From a virus (taxonomy: Duplodnaviria > Caudoviricetes), in IMG/VR virus record IMGVR_UViG_3300024520_000087, positions 1 to 56,483 of that record: a stretch of DNA of 56,483 nucleotides; one strand, written 5' to 3'. Both the position numbers and the translations under genes were made by a program. This document shows, one piece after another, positions 6,147 through 50,813 of this stretch (position 1 is the first letter of the stretch; every line of letters starts with the position of its first letter). The notes below the pieces were generated by a model, which was not told where the DNA came from, did no database searches, and saw nothing but the letters and a program-made list of their open reading frames with translations.

Positions 6147-7214
6147 ATGAAAATCAATCTTAAAGCATTCAACGAATTAGTAAACAAAAACTTCATTGGT
6201 GTACAAAAACACCCCGATTCAGACCTTCTTATTTGGAACTACACTAATAAAGCCCAATACGATGGTGAGTGGTTGCCAGAAACAAGAATGGCTCGTGGAT
6301 TAATCACTGACTTAGATGGGAATATCCTTTATCGTTCTTTTGATAAATTCTTTAACTATGCGGAACACACAGGTGAAGATAGTAAATTAGAACCAATCCC
6401 CAATGAAGAATTCAGTGTTTATGAGAAATATGACGGCAGTCTGGGTATTTTATATTGGATTGATGGAGAGACTTTTATTTCTACTCGTGGCTCTTTTGTT
6501 TCAGACCAGGCCAAGGTTGCCACCAAGATATTACGAGATAAATACCCCAATGTTCCCTTTCAAAACTTACATGAGTGGACAATCCTTTTCGAAATAATCT
6601 ATCCAGAAAACAGAATAGTGGTTGATTACGGTGAAATGAAAGATCTGGTCTTACTAAATGCAATTAATACAGAAACTGGAGAGAGTATTAATTATAAGGA
6701 GCTGACTAAATTTGCGAAAGAAAACAATATTCCCATAGCGGAAAGATATCAATTTACATCTCTTCCAGACATGAATACTGACATTCCAATTAACGTAGAG
6801 GGTTACGTGATTGAATTTGAAGGTGGGATGAAAGTAAAAATGAAATATGACGAGTATGTGCGATTACACCGTTTGGTAACTGGCGTAAACTCAAAAACAA
6901 TTTGGGATCTTCTACGACACAAACAACCGTTTGATGAGTTGTTAGACAAAGTGCCAGATGAATTCTACGATTGGGTTAAGAAAACCAAACTCAATCTGGA
7001 GAACTCTTACAAGGAGATAGAAGACTCTGCAAAAAAGAAGTTTAAAGAGATATCTGACTTAAAAACCAGAAAAGAACAGGCATTTTCTTTATCGGGTTAC
7101 ACTTATCCTGGAATTGTCTTTAAAATGCTGGATGGCAAGGATTACGAAGAACAAATATGGAAAATTATCAAACCCAGAGCGGAAAAACCATTCAAGGAGG
7201 ACGTAGATGCCTAA
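6147..7214 (+). CDS. T4 Rnl1/RnlA-family RNA ligase
   Basis: ARGLI, FDKFFN, motif I EKYDGSLG, STRGSF, FEII.PENRIVVDY, EGYV, KMKY..Y. Confidence 0.92.
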   Translation: MKINLKAFNELVNKNFIGVQKHPDSDLLIWNYTNKAQYDGEWLPETRMARGLITDLDGNILYRSFDKFFNYAEHTGEDSKLEPIPNEEFSVYEKYDGSLGILYWIDGETFISTRGSFVSDQAKVATKILRDKYPNVPFQNLHEWTILFEIIYPENRIVVDYGEMKDLVLLNAINTETGESINYKELTKFAKENNIPIAERYQFTSLPDMNTDIPINVEGYVIEFEGGMKVKMKYDEYVRLHRLVTGVNSKTIWDLLRHKQPFDELLDKVPDEFYDWVKKTKLNLENSYKEIEDSAKKKFKEISDLKTRKEQAFSLSGYTYPGIVFKMLDGKDYEEQIWKIIKPRAEKPFKEDVDA

Positions 7215-8052
7215 AATAATACTAACCAAAGGATTGCCTGCAAGTGGAAAAACTACTTGGGTAAAGGAAGAACAAAAGAAAGATCCCAACCTTGTTCGTG
7301 TTAACAAAGATGATCTTCGTGCCATGTTGCATGGTGGTAAGTGGGGCAAGAATAACGAGAAGGATGTTCTTGCGATCAGAAATTTTATTGTAGATAGGGC
7401 ATTGACTCGTGGACGAAACATCGTTGTCGATGACACCAACCTTCATTCCAAACACGAGATACACTTGAAGCAAGTTGCAAAAAAGCACAACGCAGAATTT
7501 ACAATTAAAGACTTTACGAGTGTTTCACAAGAGGAATGTATAAAACGTGATCTTAAAAGAAGCAATAGTGTTGGTTCCGAAGTAATCCATAAAATGTATA
7601 AACAATTCCTCGACATTGTCTCTCCAGGTATCTTAGAGCCAGATCCAAACTTACCGACTGTGATTATTTGTGATCTTGATGGAACACTTTGTTTGTTCGA
7701 CGGAAATCCTTACGAAAGAGACTTCAGTAAGGATAAGATAAATAAACCCGTGAAATCTATCCTAGACAGCAATGAAGACGTGAAAGACATAATTTTCTTT
7801 TCTGGTAGAAATGGTAAATTCAAAGACCAAACAAGAAAGTGGCTGGACGATCACGGATACGGTGACTGTTCACTGTATATGAGAGCTGAAGGCGACACCC
7901 GCAAGGACGTGCTAGTCAAGAAAGAGATGTATGAAGAACATATTGAGGGCAAATTTAATGTACTATTTGTGTTGGACGACAGAGATCAGGTCGTAAACCT
8001 GTGGAGGGGCCTTGGCCTGGCTTGTTTCCAAGTGGCAGAAGGGAATTTTTAA
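7207..8052 (+). CDS. pseT: Polynucleotide 5'-kinase/3'-phosphatase (T4 PNK-like)
   Basis: Walker A GLPASGKT, NKDDLR, VDDTN, R..KR lid. HAD domain DLDGT, SGR, DDRDQVV..WR..G. Confidence 0.93.
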   Translation: MPKIILTKGLPASGKTTWVKEEQKKDPNLVRVNKDDLRAMLHGGKWGKNNEKDVLAIRNFIVDRALTRGRNIVVDDTNLHSKHEIHLKQVAKKHNAEFTIKDFTSVSQEECIKRDLKRSNSVGSEVIHKMYKQFLDIVSPGILEPDPNLPTVIICDLDGTLCLFDGNPYERDFSKDKINKPVKSILDSNEDVKDIIFFSGRNGKFKDQTRKWLDDHGYGDCSLYMRAEGDTRKDVLVKKEMYEEHIEGKFNVLFVLDDRDQVVNLWRGLGLACFQVAEGNF

Positions 8053-8225
8053 TGGAAAAGAACAAACTCACACTATATATTAGTATCGTACAATTACTCA
8101 TACTTATTTGTTTAATTGTCGTTGTTTTTGTTTTAGAGGCAAGATATGGAGGGTTAACCCACTCCGACTGTGAGATCTCCTACTGCGAGTCAGTAACACA
8201 AGAAAACCCCATACTTCAGTCATAA
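8052..8225 (+). CDS. Small membrane protein
   Basis: ATG overlaps the pseT stop, single TM helix. Confidence 0.55.
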   Translation: MEKNKLTLYISIVQLLILICLIVVVFVLEARYGGLTHSDCEISYCESVTQENPILQS

Positions 8226-8247
8226 TCATTGTAACCACAATGGGGGG

Positions 8248-8276
8248 TTGACAAATGTAACTATATTTTATATATT
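8248..8276 (+). promoter_or_regulatory. Sigma70-type promoter for the RAMP/array operon; leaderless start
   Basis: TTGACA-N17-TATATT, ATG 7 nt later at 8284. TGTAACYAYA boxes at 8230 and 8256. Confidence 0.8.
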
Positions 8277-8283
8277 ACCTCTA

Positions 8284-8475
8284 ATGAAAGTAATAAGCAT
8301 GCGCGACTTTACTACTAACCCCTACCATCATTTGGAGGAACTTCCCCTCGTCGTGATGAAAAGAAACGTCCCCCATCTTTACATACAGGACTTCTCAGAA
8401 GTGGCGACTAAGACCCTTGCAAAGAAAGTTATTAAAATGCACATAGAAAACATTGTGAAAAAGAAGAATAAATAA
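8284..8475 (+). CDS. Phd/YefM-like small DNA-binding protein
   Basis: MKVISMRDF...PLVVMKRNVPHLYI matches the Phd N-terminal pattern (ISxRDF...PVVITxxxxP). Confidence 0.65.
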   Translation: MKVISMRDFTTNPYHHLEELPLVVMKRNVPHLYIQDFSEVATKTLAKKVIKMHIENIVKKKNK

Positions 8476-8477
8476 TC

Positions 8478-9077
8478 ATGGCCAAAAACGTATCAGTACA
8501 TATCCCAGAACCAAATATACAGACAATTAAACTAACTCTTGTTGGTAGGCGACCTCTTATTATGAATGAGTGGAGTGAAAAGGCTAAAACTCAAATAAGA
8601 GACAAACAAGCCAAAAAAGCTAACAAGAAAAAGAATGCACGTAAACCAAAAGAAGAGTACGAGTCAGCCAAAATCAAAAATGGAAAAGGGAAACTTAGCA
8701 TTAAAGCTATCTGGATAAAGAGTGCAATTGTCGGATCTGCAAGATTTGTTGACGATCTTCCAATGACAGTATTAAGAGGCGCAGTCTTTGTAAGAGGTGA
8801 TGATGACGGATTAATACAACTCAGATACAAGAAAGAGGAAATGGTCGAGGACACAGTGAGACTTTCAGGGATGGGTAGAAGTGCAGATTTAAGATACAGG
8901 CCATATATCTACGACTGGGAAGCAGATGTCGAGATAGACTTTGATGGAGACGTTCTTTCTCTCGAACAAGTAGTTAATCTTGTTAAAAAAGCAGGATTCT
9001 CTAACGGTTTAGGAGAAAACAGACCAGAACGTAGTGGAAATGATTATGGAACATTCGACGTAAAAGCAACAAAGTAG
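8478..9077 (+). CDS. Stand-alone RAMP/Cas7-like protein (Vipr-like)
   Basis: RAMP-like layout: beta1 IKLTLVGRRPLIM, SIKAIWIKSAI (cf. IPGSSLKGAL), R.RP...W, and a C-terminal Gly-rich loop AGFSNGLGENRPERSGNDYGTFDV. No other cas genes are present. Confidence 0.72.
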   Translation: MAKNVSVHIPEPNIQTIKLTLVGRRPLIMNEWSEKAKTQIRDKQAKKANKKKNARKPKEEYESAKIKNGKGKLSIKAIWIKSAIVGSARFVDDLPMTVLRGAVFVRGDDDGLIQLRYKKEEMVEDTVRLSGMGRSADLRYRPYIYDWEADVEIDFDGDVLSLEQVVNLVKKAGFSNGLGENRPERSGNDYGTFDVKATK

Positions 9078-9313
9078 TGGCAGGATCGTTACGGTTTTTA
9101 TCGGAAAATTACGCAAGTTATCGGATGGGATGGGATTGGCAGGAGGGGTATCGAGTGTAGGGGATTGGACCAGAAAGGAGTCGAGGGTTAAGGATCGGAA
9201 TAGCAGGAACGGAAGAGAGGGGTATAGAGGGGTGAGGAACAGAAAGGAACGGATTGGCAGGAACGGAGGGGGAAGATTGGAGGGGAGAGTTTAGGAATGG
9301 AGAGGAATGGAAA
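9078..9313 (+). ncRNA. Pentameric (GGA-NN)n array, four units separated by GGCA/AGCA; candidate guide-RNA array
   Basis: T(G/A)GCAGGA at 9078, 9137, 9201 and 9255, spaced 59, 64 and 54 nt (all 5n+4). Between them is a 5-nt register with a mostly GGA/GGT/AGA triplet and a variable dinucleotide. Starts immediately after the RAMP stop codon. Confidence 0.8.
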
Positions 9314-9315
9314 TC

Positions 9316-9762
9316 ATGAAAACAAGAGACAAAATACAAAAAGCATTTAATGAGCTATCAGAAAAAAGCTCAGATGGAGGTGTGAGACCTGAAGACTTGG
9401 TTAAATACGCAAAACCCAAGGATTCACCACTGCATGAACACTTCGAATGGGACAATAAAAAGGCGGGTCAAACATATAGGGTTCACCAAGCAAGACAGTT
9501 GATTGGAAAACTACGAGTAGAAGTAGAAGGAGAAAACGTAAAACAGTTTCACAGTATTGTATTGGAAGTAGAAGAAGGTAAAGAAAGTAAATATTTCTCT
9601 CTAGAGAAAATACTTACAGATAAAGATCTCAAATCAAAAGCACTAAAACAGATGGTTAAGGATATTAAGTTCTTTATTAAAAAATATGAAACGCATAAAG
9701 AATTATTTGAAATAGTGAATACGGATAAAGTCGACGAATACCACAAACAGTATTTAGATTAA
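9316..9762 (+). CDS. Phage protein immediately downstream of the array (possible partner of the RAMP module)
   Basis: P..LV..A....SPLH.HFEWD...A...YR..QARQLI motif. Starts 2 nt after the last pentamer. Confidence 0.75.
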   Translation: MKTRDKIQKAFNELSEKSSDGGVRPEDLVKYAKPKDSPLHEHFEWDNKKAGQTYRVHQARQLIGKLRVEVEGENVKQFHSIVLEVEEGKESKYFSLEKILTDKDLKSKALKQMVKDIKFFIKKYETHKELFEIVNTDKVDEYHKQYLD

Positions 9763-9764
9763 TT

Positions 9765-9971
9765 ATGTTTAAAACAGGAGACAAAGTAACCATAAAAGAG
9801 GGTTCTGCTTACTATGAGAATAGAAAGCAGATGCGTGGAACCATCACGAATATAGATTATGATGATGAATGTACTGTTGAATTTGAAGATGGATATAGAG
9901 GCGAATATGCCCAAGATCAATGTGTAGATTTACTTATAAGGGAGACGAAGCAGAAAAAGAGAGGAAATTAA
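9765..9971 (+). CDS. Small SH3/KOW-like beta-barrel protein
   Basis: FKTGDKVTI...GTIT.I......VEFEDG. Confidence 0.55.
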   Translation: MFKTGDKVTIKEGSAYYENRKQMRGTITNIDYDDECTVEFEDGYRGEYAQDQCVDLLIRETKQKKRGN

Positions 9972-10041
9972 AAATAAATGCATTCGGAGAGATGGTTTAG
10001 GAGAAGACGTTTAAAGTTGAAATAGTTGAAGGAGAAGAAGA

Positions 10042-11214
10042 ATGAAAACCAAGAATAAAAAATGCAAACAGTGCAAGATAACTTTTTCCAGAAAAGTTTG
10101 GAATCAGGTATTTTGTTCCAACAAATGTCAAAGAGAATGGCTTTTAAAGGTCAACTTAAAGATCAAGGAGAAGAAAAAGAAGCAAAAGGAAGAATACAAA
10201 TCTAAACACCCGCTTGTTGAAAGAAAAAAGGAATGTAAACAGTGTGGAGAGACTTTTACCTGGAGGTCTGATAAACCAACTAGAAAATTCTGTGAAGTAA
10301 AGTGTTCATCTAAATATGGTGGCCCAAAAGAAAAAGATAGGAGAAAAAAGATAAAAGAGTCTCAACAAAACATAGACAAAGATAACAAAAATCTAGTTGC
10401 AGTTAATGACGTGTGGCTCACACTCAAGCATTACAAAGAACCTCTCAAAAAAGTTAAAAAGGGTAATCATGGATTTTATGGTGCTCTTCTTTCTACTGTG
10501 GATGGGGAACTTATACAGTGTCATATTTGCGGGAAGCTTTATAAATCATTGATTTTCCACGTGAAGTCGGCTCACAAAATAAACACCAAGGAATATAGGA
10601 AAAAATTTAACCTTGCTGGCAGTACAGCTTTAGTTTCTGAGGTTCTTAGAAATAAATATAAAAAGAGAACGATTGATTGGCTAAATAAAATGAGTAAAGA
10701 AGAAAAGGAGACATATTTTGAAAGAAAACGGGAACGCATTAAAAAATGGTACGCGAGAACAAAAAAGGATGGCACCCTCCACGAAAAAATGTCTCACCCT
10801 ATTACTTTGGAAACTAAAAACAAAAGGGGTACGTGTCCAGACCAATTACTGGACAAAATAAAGAAAGTTTCCAATCAACTTGGCCACACTCCTTCTAAAA
10901 GAGAATTTATTCAAGTCTGTGAAACACAAAGGTATATGCATCTTATTTACAAGACATTTGGGTCTTGGCCCAATGCTCTTAAGATGGCTAAATTGAACCC
11001 AAAACCAAAAACAGAAAATGGAGGACACAGAAAATACTCAGACGAAGAGTTGTTGGAATATTTAAGAATCTTTACACAAGAGTTTAACAAGGTTCCTACA
11101 TATACAGATTTTAGAAGAGGTTTATTGCCAGACTACGCAATATATACGAGACGATGGGGAGGAATAGAAAATGCAAGACAAGAAGCAGGAATTTACGAAT
11201 TTATAGAAGATTAA
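10042..11214 (+). CDS. Multi-domain DNA-binding protein: Zn ribbons, MucR/Ros-like finger, homing-endonuclease-associated helical repeats
   Basis: Two CxxC...FCSxxC-type units, CHICGKLYKSL..HV...H.....EYRKKF, and two TPS...F...FGSW..AL-type repeats. No HNH catalytic motif seen. Confidence 0.7.
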   Translation: MKTKNKKCKQCKITFSRKVWNQVFCSNKCQREWLLKVNLKIKEKKKKQKEEYKSKHPLVERKKECKQCGETFTWRSDKPTRKFCEVKCSSKYGGPKEKDRRKKIKESQQNIDKDNKNLVAVNDVWLTLKHYKEPLKKVKKGNHGFYGALLSTVDGELIQCHICGKLYKSLIFHVKSAHKINTKEYRKKFNLAGSTALVSEVLRNKYKKRTIDWLNKMSKEEKETYFERKRERIKKWYARTKKDGTLHEKMSHPITLETKNKRGTCPDQLLDKIKKVSNQLGHTPSKREFIQVCETQRYMHLIYKTFGSWPNALKMAKLNPKPKTENGGHRKYSDEELLEYLRIFTQEFNKVPTYTDFRRGLLPDYAIYTRRWGGIENARQEAGIYEFIED

Positions 11215-13374: not shown

Positions 13375-13846
13375 TTACATGACAAGGAAAGAGTACCTAG
13401 ATTGGTACGCCAAAGAGGGTTGCAAAGAATGTCTACTTTGTAAACCTGAGGTACAAATGGTTATTGAAGAATTCAAACATTGGATCTGGATTGTCAACCC
13501 AGCACCTTATGTGGGTAGGCATACAATGCTAATTCCAAGAAGGCATATTCTTTTTGAGAGTGAAATAACAGAAGAAGAACACAAGGAATACAGAAAGATA
13601 TTTGATTTAATTCTTGATAGGTACAGAGCTGCAAAGATGAAGCACCACGATGGGACGCCAGTTAGAAAGTTTACCGTAGCCACAAGGACAAGAGATTATC
13701 GATTTGTACATGATGGGGATCTTCCTCGACCAGAGCATCTACACAAACATTTCATACCAGAACACATAAAGATGTGGAGGAAAATGAATGAAGAGGATGC
13801 ACACACATACAGAGATACTGTTGAATTACTAAAACGTAATGAATAA
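13361..13846 (+). CDS. HIT-family nucleotide hydrolase
   Basis: CLLC, NPAPY...HTMLIPRRH, HLHKHFIP histidine triad. Confidence 0.85.
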   Translation: MKKLDYMTRKEYLDWYAKEGCKECLLCKPEVQMVIEEFKHWIWIVNPAPYVGRHTMLIPRRHILFESEITEEEHKEYRKIFDLILDRYRAAKMKHHDGTPVRKFTVATRTRDYRFVHDGDLPRPEHLHKHFIPEHIKMWRKMNEEDAHTYRDTVELLKRNE

Positions 13847-14435
13847 AAAAATAGTAGAAAGAATCTATCCAAACGACAAGCGTGTTAAACCACAAACAGT
13901 GGCACACCACATCGCTAGATATGAGTTTGCGTCTAAGTTTGAAGGAGAAGTTGCATTAGACGTTGGATGTGGTACTGGATATGGATGTGAAATGTTAAGA
14001 CAAGCAGGATTTTATATGACTAAAGGATTTGATGAGAGTCTGACTGCAATTAATTACGCCAAGGAACATTTCCCCAAGTGCCACTTCTTCAGAAGAGACT
14101 TGGTAGAAATGAATGGCACACTCTATAGACCAGACTTAGTCACAATGTTTGAAGTAATAGAACACATCCCGTTTAATATAGGTAAGGACACCATACGGTG
14201 GATAAGTAAAGTTTTAAGAAACAAAGGTACATTTATCATGTCTACCCCTAGAGATATTAATGGTAAGTATAACGAGTTTCACAAGAGTGAATGGCCCTAT
14301 CCGATTATAAAGAATGAATTAGGATCAGTATTTAAAAATGTAAAGATCTACGGACAAGATTGGGATACTGCTAAAATAACAACAGAACACGTACCAAATG
14401 AAGATTTTTACATAGCAGTTTGTAGTAATGACTGA
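13839..14435 (+). CDS. Class I SAM-dependent methyltransferase
   Basis: HIARYEFA, LDVGCGTGYG, FEVIEHI, STP...NEFH. Confidence 0.9.
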   Translation: MNKKIVERIYPNDKRVKPQTVAHHIARYEFASKFEGEVALDVGCGTGYGCEMLRQAGFYMTKGFDESLTAINYAKEHFPKCHFFRRDLVEMNGTLYRPDLVTMFEVIEHIPFNIGKDTIRWISKVLRNKGTFIMSTPRDINGKYNEFHKSEWPYPIIKNELGSVFKNVKIYGQDWDTAKITTEHVPNEDFYIAVCSND

Positions 14436-42286: not shown

Positions 42287-42316
42287 TTGACAAGAAAGGC
42301 TTTAGTCTCCTAAGAT
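42287..42316 (+). promoter_or_regulatory. Sigma70-type promoter for the replication gene; leaderless start
   Basis: TTGACA-N18-TAAGAT, ATG at 42324. Confidence 0.75.
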
Positions 42317-42323
42317 GTACATA

Positions 42324-43064
42324 ATGCATAGTGATAAGTTTCCAGGCTTCCCTCGTGAGTTAGAAAAATCCTATTGGCAATTCCCCACAATAATCAACGG
42401 TCACGCACATTCTCTGACTGGTGCTGAGTTTAAAGTATTGTGGTATATTCTCCGCCACACATTTGGATGGCAAAAGACTACAGACAGGCTTTCTTTGTCT
42501 CAAATTTGCAACGGTATCAAGAAAAGGAATGGAGAACATTTCGACAAGGGGACTGGTTTGTCAAAACCTTGGGTGATAAAAGCAACAAAGACACTTGAAA
42601 GGAAAGGATTCATTAAAGTCAAAAGGTCTAAAGGGAAGTCCAATGAGATCACTTTAATGATCACTGGTAAAGAAAATAAACCAGTTAATAAAGTTAACCA
42701 GAACCAGTTAAGAAAGTTAACCAGAACTGGTAAAGAAAGTTTACATACAATAGATATTACCAATAGAATACCAATAAAAGATTCCGACATTGCTCCGAAA
42801 AGCAAGTCGGGCTCTTGTCCTAATAAACAAGAAACTCATAAAGGATGTATAGAGTTTATTGATTCTTTTGCAGAAAGCCGTGGTGTTAAATTTGCTAACT
42901 ATCCTAAACAGATAAATGGTTTACATAAGTTATTAAGAGCTGGTTATACGTTTAGCCAAATAAACAAACAGATTGACGTTATGGAGAAGAAGAAGTTCTG
43001 GATGAGTAATGGTTTCGATTTAATGAACGTTGTAAATGAAATAGGAAAGGGAAGTTATGGCTAG
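42324..43064 (+). CDS. Replication initiator (lambda O-like N-terminal wHTH)
   Basis: LTGAEFKVL.YI.RHTFGWQK..DRLSLSQ...GTGLS...V..A...L..KG.I, with internal iterons. Confidence 0.85.
   Translation: MHSDKFPGFPRELEKSYWQFPTIINGHAHSLTGAEFKVLWYILRHTFGWQKTTDRLSLSQICNGIKKRNGEHFDKGTGLSKPWVIKATKTLERKGFIKVKRSKGKSNEITLMITGKENKPVNKVNQNQLRKLTRTGKESLHTIDITNRIPIKDSDIAPKSKSGSCPNKQETHKGCIEFIDSFAESRGVKFANYPKQINGLHKLLRAGYTFSQINKQIDVMEKKKFWMSNGFDLMNVVNEIGKGSYG
42663..42747. repeat. 23-bp tandem iterons; probable replication origin
   Basis: AACCAGTTAATAAAGTTAACCAG (42679), AACCAGTTAAGAAAGTTAACCAG (42702), AACTGGTAAAGAAAGTTTACATA (42725), partial copy at 42663. Confidence 0.75.
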
Positions 43065-49520: not shown

Positions 49521-50121
49521 TTTTCTCACACCCAATAACTGGTTTAAAGAAAAGTTCCGTGATAAATCAGGAGAGCGTTACCACACGTTTAAAGCAGGAC
49601 TCAATCTTTATTTACAGAGACGGGGGGAAATTGCCGTGGAAACAGGAACTCAAAGTAAGTCAGAAGACTGGGAATCAGGATGCAGCACTACATTAATAGG
49701 ATCAGTCACTGATACATGCGGAAGCACTCTGTATACAGTAGATAATGTTAAAAACAACCTCGGAGAATCAAAAAAGGTAACACAAGAATATGGTAAAAGC
49801 ATAAAATACATGTTGACTGACTCGGTTGAGTTCCTGGGCAAGTTCGATAAACGAATAGATTTCCTATATCTTGACAGTTGGGAACTCCCCAAAGAAGAAC
49901 TCGATCTAGAAATCTACAAAAAGGAAATGGTTAGATACCAAAGACATTGTTTGAAAGAAATAGAAACAGCTTGGCCTCGACTACACAAAGACTCAATAGT
50001 ATTATTTGACGACTATGACTTACCGTCAGAAAGTGTGCCCAAGCTAGCGGTAGATTGGCTGAGAGCGATGGGATGGAAAATAGTACTCTCAGGCCAACAG
50101 TGCTTAATGATATCAAGATGA
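49513..50121 (+). CDS. Class I SAM methyltransferase (Methyltransf_24-like)
   Basis: VETG, LYTVD, DSVEFL, IDFLYLDS, VLFDD. Confidence 0.85.
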   Translation: MDDFLTPNNWFKEKFRDKSGERYHTFKAGLNLYLQRRGEIAVETGTQSKSEDWESGCSTTLIGSVTDTCGSTLYTVDNVKNNLGESKKVTQEYGKSIKYMLTDSVEFLGKFDKRIDFLYLDSWELPKEELDLEIYKKEMVRYQRHCLKEIETAWPRLHKDSIVLFDDYDLPSESVPKLAVDWLRAMGWKIVLSGQQCLMISR

Positions 50122-50813
50122 ACCCAACACAAGAAATAATTACAAAAGGTGGATTAACCCTTCAACCTGAGTTCCAAAACGCCAAATATCTAATGTACGA
50201 TGAAGGTGGGATAGAAGCGGAATGTGGTGAGTTTCTTTATGGTTTAATCAGACTTCTCAAACCAGAAAGAATTTTAGAAACGGGAACAAGGAAAGGAATA
50301 GCTTCAGCATATATGGGGCTGGGTTTAAAGAAAAATGGAATTGGAGAGTTGGACACAATAGAGTTTGCCCCCGAACATTGGCCCGTTGCCAAGGACTTGT
50401 GGAAGAAGCTAGAGATAGACAGTCTAATAACACTTCATGAGAAAAAAGTAGAAGACTTTGATCCAGAACCCAACTTTAAAGGGTCTGATTTGTCGAGTAG
50501 TGATTATATGGAGAAAGAGAGAAGAAAGTATGATGTTGCTTTTCTTGACACAGAGCCAGATTTGAGATTCAAGGAACTTGTAAGATTCTTTCCTTATGTG
50601 AAGCATGGTGGATTTATAATCATTCACGACTTACACAGCCACATGTCACAAACCAAAGCTCCAGGTCAACCCTTTGCGTGGCCGTTTGGCAAACTCCCCA
50701 AAAAAATAGTAGACTGGGTAAAGGATGGGGAATTGAGACCATTTCATTTCGAGACACAGAGGGGAATGACGTGTTTTTACAAGAGTAGACCAGGAGATTT
50801 CAAATGGAAATAA
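50118..50813 (+). CDS. Class I SAM O-methyltransferase (Methyltransf_24-like)
   Basis: KPERILETGT..G.AS, YDVAFLD, GG.IIIHD. Confidence 0.88.
   Translation: MNPTQEIITKGGLTLQPEFQNAKYLMYDEGGIEAECGEFLYGLIRLLKPERILETGTRKGIASAYMGLGLKKNGIGELDTIEFAPEHWPVAKDLWKKLEIDSLITLHEKKVEDFDPEPNFKGSDLSSSDYMEKERRKYDVAFLDTEPDLRFKELVRFFPYVKHGGFIIIHDLHSHMSQTKAPGQPFAWPFGKLPKKIVDWVKDGELRPFHFETQRGMTCFYKSRPGDFKWK

Follow-up and report, generated by a model that had tools for sequence, protein, structure and literature searches.

A VIPR operon with a mostly GGA-anchored guide array in a marine tailed phage, and a guide predicted to address host ychF

Positions 8248-9762 of the complete virus record IMGVR_UViG_3300024520_000087 (56,483 bp; hereafter the window, i.e. 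the whole stretch of DNA that was analysed) carry a short operon. In it, the gene of a stand-alone RAMP protein, vipr, is followed by a non-coding array of pentamers and by an accessory gene, vap (Table 1). The record belongs to a marine tailed phage with genes for terminase, portal, major head protein, tail fibre and endolysin. We conclude that this locus is a VIPR system and not a new system. It very probably silences DNA by means of its guide RNAs (vrRNAs), the second of which is predicted to place a Vipr filament on the host gene ychF.

VIPR was first described in 2026, in three preprints from one laboratory (10.64898/2026.04.26.720920, 10.64898/2026.04.26.720927, 10.64898/2026.10.15.759431). 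In these systems, a lone RAMP protein, Vipr, works with vrRNAs of 9-16 YNNGG repeats (10.64898/2026.04.26.720920; 10.64898/2026.04.26.720927; 10.64898/2026.10.15.759431). Cryo-electron microscopy of the SUSP1 complex is reported to show one Vipr protomer per repeat, with GGY buried and NN exposed (10.64898/2026.04.26.720927). The complex binds double-stranded DNA and leaves one target base in three unread, which is usually the wobble base (10.64898/2026.04.26.720920; 10.64898/2026.04.26.720927), and the described outcome is the transcriptional silencing of rival elements (10.64898/2026.04.26.720920; 10.64898/2026.10.15.759431). Six vap genes and seven types are distinguished (10.64898/2026.04.26.720920), and the preprints accept a target from at least 80% NN identity. 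A sequence-only reading of the window, made earlier without database searches, had suggested a match to VIPR and proposed that one subunit holds the constant triplet of each pentamer and displays NN. The suggested architecture is indeed in print (10.64898/2026.04.26.720920), and this mode of binding is the one reported for SUSP1 (10.64898/2026.04.26.720927).

The vipr gene, its array and its partner

The first gene of interest is identified by homology as encoding a Vipr protein. A database search with its product gave 36 relatives at E<=0.001, none of them having a Pfam domain. From the PDB, a profile of 34 homologues retrieved a sole significant match, chain 36pp_D "SUSP1 Vipr protein" (E 1.7e-11; next E 0.38), and the same family profile recovered SUSP1 gp039 with E 5.8e-14. 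Using hhalign, the family and SUSP1 gp039 were aligned with a probability of 97.7% (E 1.7e-12) over 63 columns, which comprise the end of the thumb, helix 2 and the G-loop. In this alignment, R138, D177 and R179 of SUSP1 correspond to R141, E180 and R182, and the changed pairs are W178 to N181 and C173 to N176. Of these SUSP1 residues, R138, D177 and W178 contact the bases G1 and G2. H17 and the helix-1 residues of SUSP1 are outside the alignable part, and so is the helix-1 half of the pocket for Y3.

The C-terminal end of the protein reads GLGENRPERSGNDYGTF, and this block is the most conserved of the family. Residues G173, G177, R182, G187, G191 and F193 are invariant in the family, as is R141. 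Three parts can be distinguished: the G-loop (173-193), a thumb-like beta-hairpin (119-145) and a Lys-rich helical insert (34-64). The AlphaFold (AF2) model, with a pLDDT of 88, predicts a Cas7/Csm3-like minimal RAMP fold made of one RRM core, a Gly-rich loop and a thumb. A Foldseek search with this model placed Csm3/Cas7 of type III and VII complexes at the top (E 9e-6), among 57 matches at E<=0.001 with a TM of about 0.5. The sequence-only reading had seen here a solo RAMP/Cas7-like gene whose 199-residue product ends in a RAMP-type Gly-rich loop. The conserved block with its invariant glycines, the profile match to SUSP1 Vipr and the structural matches all agree with this view. Its observation that cas genes and a CRISPR array are missing is also upheld: the Cas models of PADLOC had no match in the 60 open reading frames (ORFs), out of 91, that were scanned, and Tandem Repeats Finder found no CRISPR-like array.

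The protein is assigned to phrog_4652 and belongs to a large superfamily, as the profile collected 7562 cluster representatives at E<=0.001 from 1.84 billion proteins. There are 368 relatives in IMG/VR, and homologues were also found in cultured Mycobacterium and Gordonia phages, a cyanophage and a Pseudomonas phage. The ORFs of vipr and vap are both intact, and no family-invariant residue is missing from their products.

We then characterized the spacer between the two genes by its 5-nt periodicity, measured as the Fourier power of G in 100-nt segments along either strand of the entire genome. Of all these segments, the top 12 begin within 9071-9166, with a peak power of 2.59 against a 99.9th percentile of 1.61; as a positive control, the metric recovers the known array of SUSP1. 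The units were phased by taking the last G of each (G/A)GCAG as the first G of the following unit. Each (G/A)GCAG coincides exactly with a phase shift of one base, as it does in relatives, and this jump fits the published staggered arrays with a 1-nt overlap (legend of fig. S18 in 10.64898/2026.04.26.720920). Once phased, 31 of the 47 pentamers begin with GG, versus a mean of 8.6 in 5000 shuffles (sd 2.3, maximum 17). G occupies position 1 in 37 pentamers and position 2 in 38, and the information content amounts to 0.83-1.11 bits at positions 1-3, 0.36 bits at position 4 and 0.02 bits at position 5. From its sequence, the spacer is thus a vrRNA array of the staggered kind, in which (G/A)GCAG marks the limits of four or five guides, each 55-65 nt long. 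The non-coding pentamer array of 236 nt that had been noticed from the base after the vipr stop codon is found at that place, with the strongest 5-nt periodicity of the genome, and its units of 12, 13 and 11 pentamers are, by sequence, of the expected length (about 55-65 nt).

The 3' end of the array doubles as the Shine-Dalgarno sequence (GGAGAGG) of vap. The array RNA is predicted to be less structured than shuffled sequences (z +1.54; weaker than 192 of the 200 shuffles), and no Rfam family was matched in 7900-9900. Two ORFs run through the array, one of 73 aa (9118-9339, minus strand) and one of 54 aa (9130-9294, plus strand). Both result from the purine-rich repeat and might be mistaken for genes.

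To place the locus among its relatives, 80 IMG/VR loci carrying Vipr relatives were compared (designated here by L numbers). In 75 of the 80, the strongest 5-nt G periodicity lies downstream of vipr on the vipr strand, and in 73 of these 75 it exceeds the 99.9th percentile of the window. The periodic arrays that were expected next to the homologues are therefore present, on the same strand. The GGCAG punctuation is common to the arrays of L001, L002, L014, L081, L082 and Gordonia phage UmaThurman.

A homologue of the 148-residue protein is found beside vipr in 66 of the 80 loci, and this protein is therefore considered to be the cognate vap. The partner gene that had been noticed after the array, starting at ATG 9316, is thus a conserved accessory gene. 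The order of the genes is mostly vipr-vap-array; the array stands between both genes in the window and in L002, L004, L005, L079 and L080. The protein is assigned to phrog_15946, and its AF2 model (pLDDT 93.6) shows an N-terminal domain that resembles a winged helix and, after it, a helical hairpin. Structural comparisons point in the same direction with modest scores: Foldseek weakly matched forkhead/winged-helix domains (E 0.09, probability 0.97), and VIA gave Z 5-6 to PadR/Fox winged helices, a range that the tool rates as middling. No Pfam family was found for vap, with scattered weak single-member matches only among 40 family members, and no significant match was obtained against PDB sequences. 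Between the vap family and SUSP1 vap1, hhalign gave a probability of 0.14%, i.e. they are different families.

Table 1. Position of the features of the VIPR operon in the window
Feature	Positions	Strand	Remarks
Sigma-70-like promoter	8248..8276	+	TTGACA-17-TATATT; 11/12 consensus positions, consensus match only
Small ORF	8284..8475	+	63 aa (ATG 8284) or 58 aa (ATG 8299)
vipr	8478..9077	+	199 aa; stand-alone RAMP (Cas7-like)
Non-coding array	9078..9313 (up to 9315)	+	236 nt; begins directly past the TAG stop of vipr
First GGCAG boundary pentamer	9079..9083	+	last G opens guide 1
vrRNA unit 1	9083..9142	+	12 pentamers, degenerate (every second without GG); ends GGCAG
vrRNA unit 2	9142..9206	+	13 pentamers; ends AGCAG
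vrRNA unit 3	9206..9260	+	11 pentamers; ends GGCAG
Worn last unit or units	9260..9313	+	4 pentamers ending GATTG, then 7 one base out of step; no terminal GGCAG
vap	9316..9762	+	148 aa; vipr-accessory gene; alternative ATG 9307 gives 151 aa

The GGA anchor and the G-loop

The canonical GGY anchor is not the one that prevails in this array, since position 3 is A in 34 of the 47 pentamers and C or T in 12. This GGA anchor is no bar to VIPR membership, because the papers admit NNNGG and other anchors. Alternative repeats of the form NNNGG, YNNNG and NNNNG are described (10.64898/2026.04.26.720920), as well as further non-canonical anchors such as GAC, CAC, WGT and TGH (10.64898/2026.10.21.760802). 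In the main text of the latter, "GGA" is absent.

We investigated how widespread this preference is from the in-phase instances of GGxNNGG in 83 systems, 77 of which had at least 8 units. Only 7 of these 77 have A in at least 50% of cases at position 3, namely the window (85%), L081 (87%), L072, L036, L027, L028 and L080, and C and T together dominate most of the others. Among the loci compared at the DNA level, L081 is the closest relative of the window; its Vipr is 69% identical, its GGA array is clean and its G-loop reads FSNGIGENRPE. The observation of the sequence-only reading that the constant triplet is mostly GGA is thus true of the window and of L081. Its further suggestion of a distinct subtype is considered below; the locus is in any case VIPR and no new system, and anchors other than GGY are already in print.

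In SUSP1, G2 is described as stacking on W178, and the pocket of Y3, which includes C173, as one that "sterically excludes purines" (10.64898/2026.04.26.720927). Judged from the alignment, the residues of the G-loop that perform these two functions in SUSP1 are replaced here. The altered loop fits the shifted preference of the anchor, as a correlation among related loci. It might reflect a sub-branch of Vipr in which a remodelled Y3 pocket tolerates or favours a purine as the third letter of the triplet, a proposal for which we find the arguments evenly balanced. The window and L081 share FSNG(L/I)GENRPE, in which C173 has become N176 and W178 has become N181, and GLCE(Y/F) is common to L027, L028 and L036, i.e. 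three more of the seven A-rich systems. The excluded purines of the SUSP1 pocket, together with the loss of silencing reported there when GGY was changed to GGA, would make such a remodelling meaningful. However, the loci are related, so that the counts are not independent events, and the change from W to N is insufficient for A, as L017 and L041 have N and yet C/T anchors. A drift to A or T in AT-rich genomes is also possible (in L082, A makes up 44% and T 49%), the half of the pocket that belongs to helix 1 is not alignable, and NNNGG and other anchors are already in print.

The match of guide 2 to ychF

Read by the rule of a 1-nt skip, guide 2 matches the P-loop codons of ychF (GIVGLPNVGKSM) with 24 of its 24 letters. 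The NN letters of units 1-12 are codon positions 1-2 of G-I-V-G-L-P-N-V-G-K-S-M, the P-loop of YchF. With the letter frequencies of the array itself, the chance of such an in-frame match is about 5e-15 per site. We scanned 596 Gb of species-representative genomes with the 24-letter skip pattern and obtained 3 exact matches, against about 0.004 expected for uniform letters. Their sources are a Cardinium endosymbiont and two metagenome-assembled genomes, one from Patescibacteria and the other unclassified. Each match falls in frame on the P-loop and leaves out the wobble base, about 5-8 codons past the likely start of ychF, and the Patescibacteria gene is YchF according to TIGR00092 (409 bits versus a cut-off of 279).

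Allowing <=2 mismatches, guide 2 matched 285 of 401 Patescibacteria genomes (284 of 400 without the unpublished G157) and 54 of 61 Bacteroidota genomes, versus 0/401 and 0/61 for the reversed control. The matches are almost always one per genome. For comparison, guide 3 matched 1 of the 61 Bacteroidota genomes versus 2 of 61 for its reversed control, which is noise level. Within the window, guide 2 had no self-target at up to 3 mismatches. The ychF match supports the use of the 1-nt-skip rule in the GGA clade. Guide 2 has the same sense as the coding strand and could therefore pair with DNA, not with the ychF mRNA.

Taken together, these data lead us to the following scheme. One promoter would drive the small ORF, vipr, the four or five vrRNAs of the staggered array and the winged-helix-like vap. 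By homology with the SUSP1 complex, Vipr protomers would coat each guide of 55-65 nt, one per pentamer, each of them burying the fixed triplet (mostly GGA) and presenting the two variable letters. These letters would pair with double-stranded DNA, every third target base being skipped, and transcription would be blocked there. Guide 2 would direct the Vipr filament to the 5' end of the host's ychF, where it would sit on the P-loop codons, and the purpose could be host takeover, with YchF shut down. Escherichia coli cells that have lost YchF are reported to be more resistant to stress and to the RNase toxin MazF, and to translate leaderless mRNAs more strongly (PMC8138138).

Several observations weigh against this scheme. 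The ychF motif was recognised by eye before the scan, which makes the genome scan confirmatory and not blind. Skips of 0, 2 and 3 nt gave 0/3 genomes each, on only the three genomes having the 1-nt match, and these controls are weak because the genomes were chosen by that match. A target is recognisable for only one of the four or five guides. Guide 3 has no match at up to 3 mismatches in the three exact-match genomes (G001-G003), and neither guide 1, guide 3 nor two guides of the close relative L081 have an exact 1-nt-skip match in viral contigs; nor does the full 12-unit target of guide 2. Such exact scans are insensitive, given the published criterion of at least 80% NN identity. The ychF guide is itself isolated, with 0/82 among the related loci and no other IMG/VR contig by exact pattern, and the match was drawn from database genomes. 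None of the runs on record as RNA contains the locus. The array is worn, as 16 of its 47 units lack GG and only 7 of the 13 units of guide 2 begin with GG. Finally, in SUSP1, altering GGY, including to GGA, is reported to have abolished silencing (10.64898/2026.04.26.720920), and the residue on which G2 stacks there, W178, is N181 here.

The wear of the array and the loss of W178 might also indicate that the array is a decaying relic or is non-functional, the ychF match being of no consequence and Vipr being inactive or using guides encoded elsewhere. Half of unit 1 is degenerate, no boundary is left at the last unit, and the arrays of relatives are far cleaner. We nevertheless hold this explanation to be very improbable. 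Chance, at the rate given above, does not readily yield an in-frame match of 24 out of 24 letters to a universal motif. Furthermore, the pentamers with degenerate triplets (CGA, GTA, AGA and GTT) retain matching NN letters, which points to selection on NN. Both vipr and vap are intact, with all family-invariant residues, and the closest relative, L081, combines a clean GGA array with the same G-loop. Another explanation would be a stand-alone Cas7-like protein that targets RNA, as Csm3 of type III does, and not DNA. Although the structure search ranks Csm3/Cas7 first, from type III and VII complexes that target RNA, the sequence homology is to Vipr and not to Csm3, guide 2 is in the same sense as the ychF mRNA and cannot pair with it, and published VIPR binds double-stranded DNA (10.64898/2026.04.26.720920; 10.64898/2026.04.26.720927). 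An RNA target is therefore the least credible of the alternatives and scarcely to be expected.

A third explanation keeps the binding of guide 2 to the 5' end of ychF and changes its purpose, which would be to block the integration at attB, or the excision at attR, of rival prophages of temperate phages for which this 5' end serves as the attachment site. The 11-unit target was found in 26 IMG/VR contigs, within 60 nt of the contig end in 10 of them and within 1.5 kb in 23. In 4 of the 5 contigs tested out of these 26, a tyrosine integrase gene ends about 175 nt from the motif; all four are related and come from one metagenome. A complete provirus, G464 (60,649 bp), has a 55-bp direct repeat at both ends (1-55 and 60548-60602). 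This repeat covers the upstream region, the start codon and the first codons of ychF and runs out in GGCATCGT, the 8 letters with which the target of guide 2 begins, and a tyrosine integrase is encoded just inside it; G464 therefore integrates in the 5' end of ychF and supplies a new promoter and start. A pneumococcal prophage located directly upstream of ychF is reported to alter ychF expression (PMC6375853). Published VIPR targets are mostly rival elements (10.64898/2026.04.26.720920; 10.64898/2026.10.15.759431), and the block would parallel the published immobilisation of a satellite (10.64898/2026.10.15.759431). That immobilisation, however, is described as the silencing of a recombinase gene and not as the occupancy of an att site (10.64898/2026.10.15.759431). 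In addition, only 8 of the 35 target positions are within the repeat, so attP and attL are without the full target, and the prophages integrating in ychF were seen in IMG/VR contigs and may be absent from the host of this phage. For these reasons, we consider the guarding of an attachment site unlikely as the purpose, and DNA silencing with a guide placed on ychF is the reading that we retain.

The known natural targets of VIPR are satellites, prophages and other VIPR loci. A host housekeeping-gene target was not found in the available parts of the VIPR preprints, and the words "ychF" and "housekeeping" are absent from the main text of one of them (10.64898/2026.10.15.759431). We put forward, as a tentative claim, that this is the first VIPR guide aimed at a universal host housekeeping gene, by means of a GGA-anchored guide and a remodelled, purine-accepting pocket, the purpose being the shutdown of YchF or the block of an attachment site. 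If true, the ychF guide would show that the VIPR code also serves phages for reprogramming their host or for protecting an integration site on its chromosome, and the skipping of the wobble base would let one guide serve across phyla, in most bacteria. A GGA-anchored guide with a purine-accepting pocket would likewise extend the published GGY code. The GGA anchor with its altered G-loop offers a natural start for mapping the residues that determine anchor specificity in Vipr, which would be useful for orthogonal VIPR tools. As far as the available text of the VIPR preprints goes, two elements lie beyond it: the GGA anchor with replaced G-loop residues, and the ychF target of guide 2.

Surroundings of the operon and comparison with known systems

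The promoter is the likely start of the operon, judging by its consensus, and it lies ahead of the operon where the sequence-only reading had put it; the coordinates then given for all parts of the locus were also borne out. Promoter-like sites are not enriched across the region (4 seen versus 5.4 expected), and no terminator-like site was found in 7900-10100. The small ORF has no match in Pfam at E<=1, in PHROG or in the Atlas, and no homologue was found in the 80 related loci. It is therefore outside the conserved VIPR module, and its former description as "Phd-like" is reduced to an early impression. With a -10 box that ends at 8276, use of the ATG at 8284 would leave the first gene of the operon almost without a leader; this is of interest only because loss of YchF favours leaderless translation.

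The operon is located directly after a pair of genes at 6147-8052 that encode an RNA ligase (phrog_562, E 7.6e-74) and a polynucleotide kinase (phrog_505, E 1.8e-82). Such a pair constitutes a T4-like RNA-repair module; we note it beside the possibility of host takeover. In SUSP1, a DNA ligase gene adjoins the VIPR locus. In the gene at 10042-11214, two ORFs past vap, a Ros/MucR zinc-finger region occurs together with two homing-endonuclease-associated repeats (Pfam matches PF18780, E 1.5e-23, and PF05443, E 9e-10); it is possibly a mobile element of the HNH type inserted beside the locus. Farther away, a 23-bp unit is repeated 2.7 times at 42679-42741, inside a gene resembling the replication initiator O (42315-43061), and these repeats are likely origin iterons. 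The ORFs 13839-14432 and 50055-50810 are methyltransferase-like and match the PADLOC model mad2 of MADS (E 1.4e-11 and 2.8e-5); they are probably phage DNA or RNA methyltransferases. A tyrosine integrase was looked for in the phage genome and not found, other recombinase types not having been searched.

Five seawater DNA runs contain the stretch of the locus or part of it, and two of these runs may be its source. Contigs from four of these runs are identical to the window wherever they overlap it, and therefore give no view of the variability of NN. A metagenome scan with the Vipr protein gave only 2 loci, and the DNA of the locus had no match in 50,697 phage records.

One of the known systems closest to the present locus is VIPR with staggered arrays (10.64898/2026.04.26.720920). 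Both have a single small Vipr RAMP on a phage-borne locus, pentamers made of a fixed triplet and NN, guides of 11-13 repeats overlapping by one base, a vap of DNA-binding type and a target that obeys the 1-nt-skip, wobble-aligned code. They differ in the anchor, which is here mostly GGA instead of GGY with many degenerate triplets, and in the position of the array between vipr and vap, most relatives being of the order vipr-vap-array.

The type II VIPR of SUSP1 (NC_028808.2 gp039/gp038; PDB 36pp) shares with the window a homologous C-terminal half of Vipr, the equivalents of R138, D177 and R179, a similar size of Vipr and the same operon logic. In contrast, the vap of the window has no similarity to vap1, W178 and C173 are both N, and the invariant structured 3' tail or pseudoknot of the SUSP1 and P. 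fulva type II systems is missing, without an Rfam match; the guides abut at GGCAG instead. The SUSP1 guides have a satellite as their target, but what guide 2 of the window matches is a housekeeping gene of the host. Because its vap is unrelated to vap1 and a structured tail is lacking, the locus is placed outside VIPR type II on the strength of these sequence features.

With Cas7/Csm3 of type III/VII CRISPR-Cas, Vipr has in common the RRM core, the G-loop, the thumb hairpin and polymerisation along a guide at a fixed step, the latter being known from the VIPR papers. The step is of 5 nt and not 6 nt, identity is only 11-15%, and Cas10, Cas5, Cas6, Cas11, adaptation genes and a CRISPR array are absent here (60/91 ORFs scanned).

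The Vipr proteins of actinophages (gp39 of Gordonia phage UmaThurman; Mycobacterium phages Brocalys, Saal, Donkeykong and others) are 34-35% identical to that of the window, and in UmaThurman a GGCAG-punctuated staggered array also stands directly past the Vipr gene. Unlike the window, these actinophages are temperate and of high GC content, with clean GGY anchors and a locus beside the immunity region. The array of UmaThurman, moreover, carries a protein-gene annotation. Its gp40 ("hypothetical protein"; L122 2125-2448, i.e. NC_031249.1 33362-33685) coincides with a GGCAG-punctuated GGY/NN array with a 5-nt G power of 6.6, and is very likely, from these periodic features, a vrRNA array mis-annotated as a gene. 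Arrays of vrRNA in cultured actinophages are thus at present annotated as protein genes.

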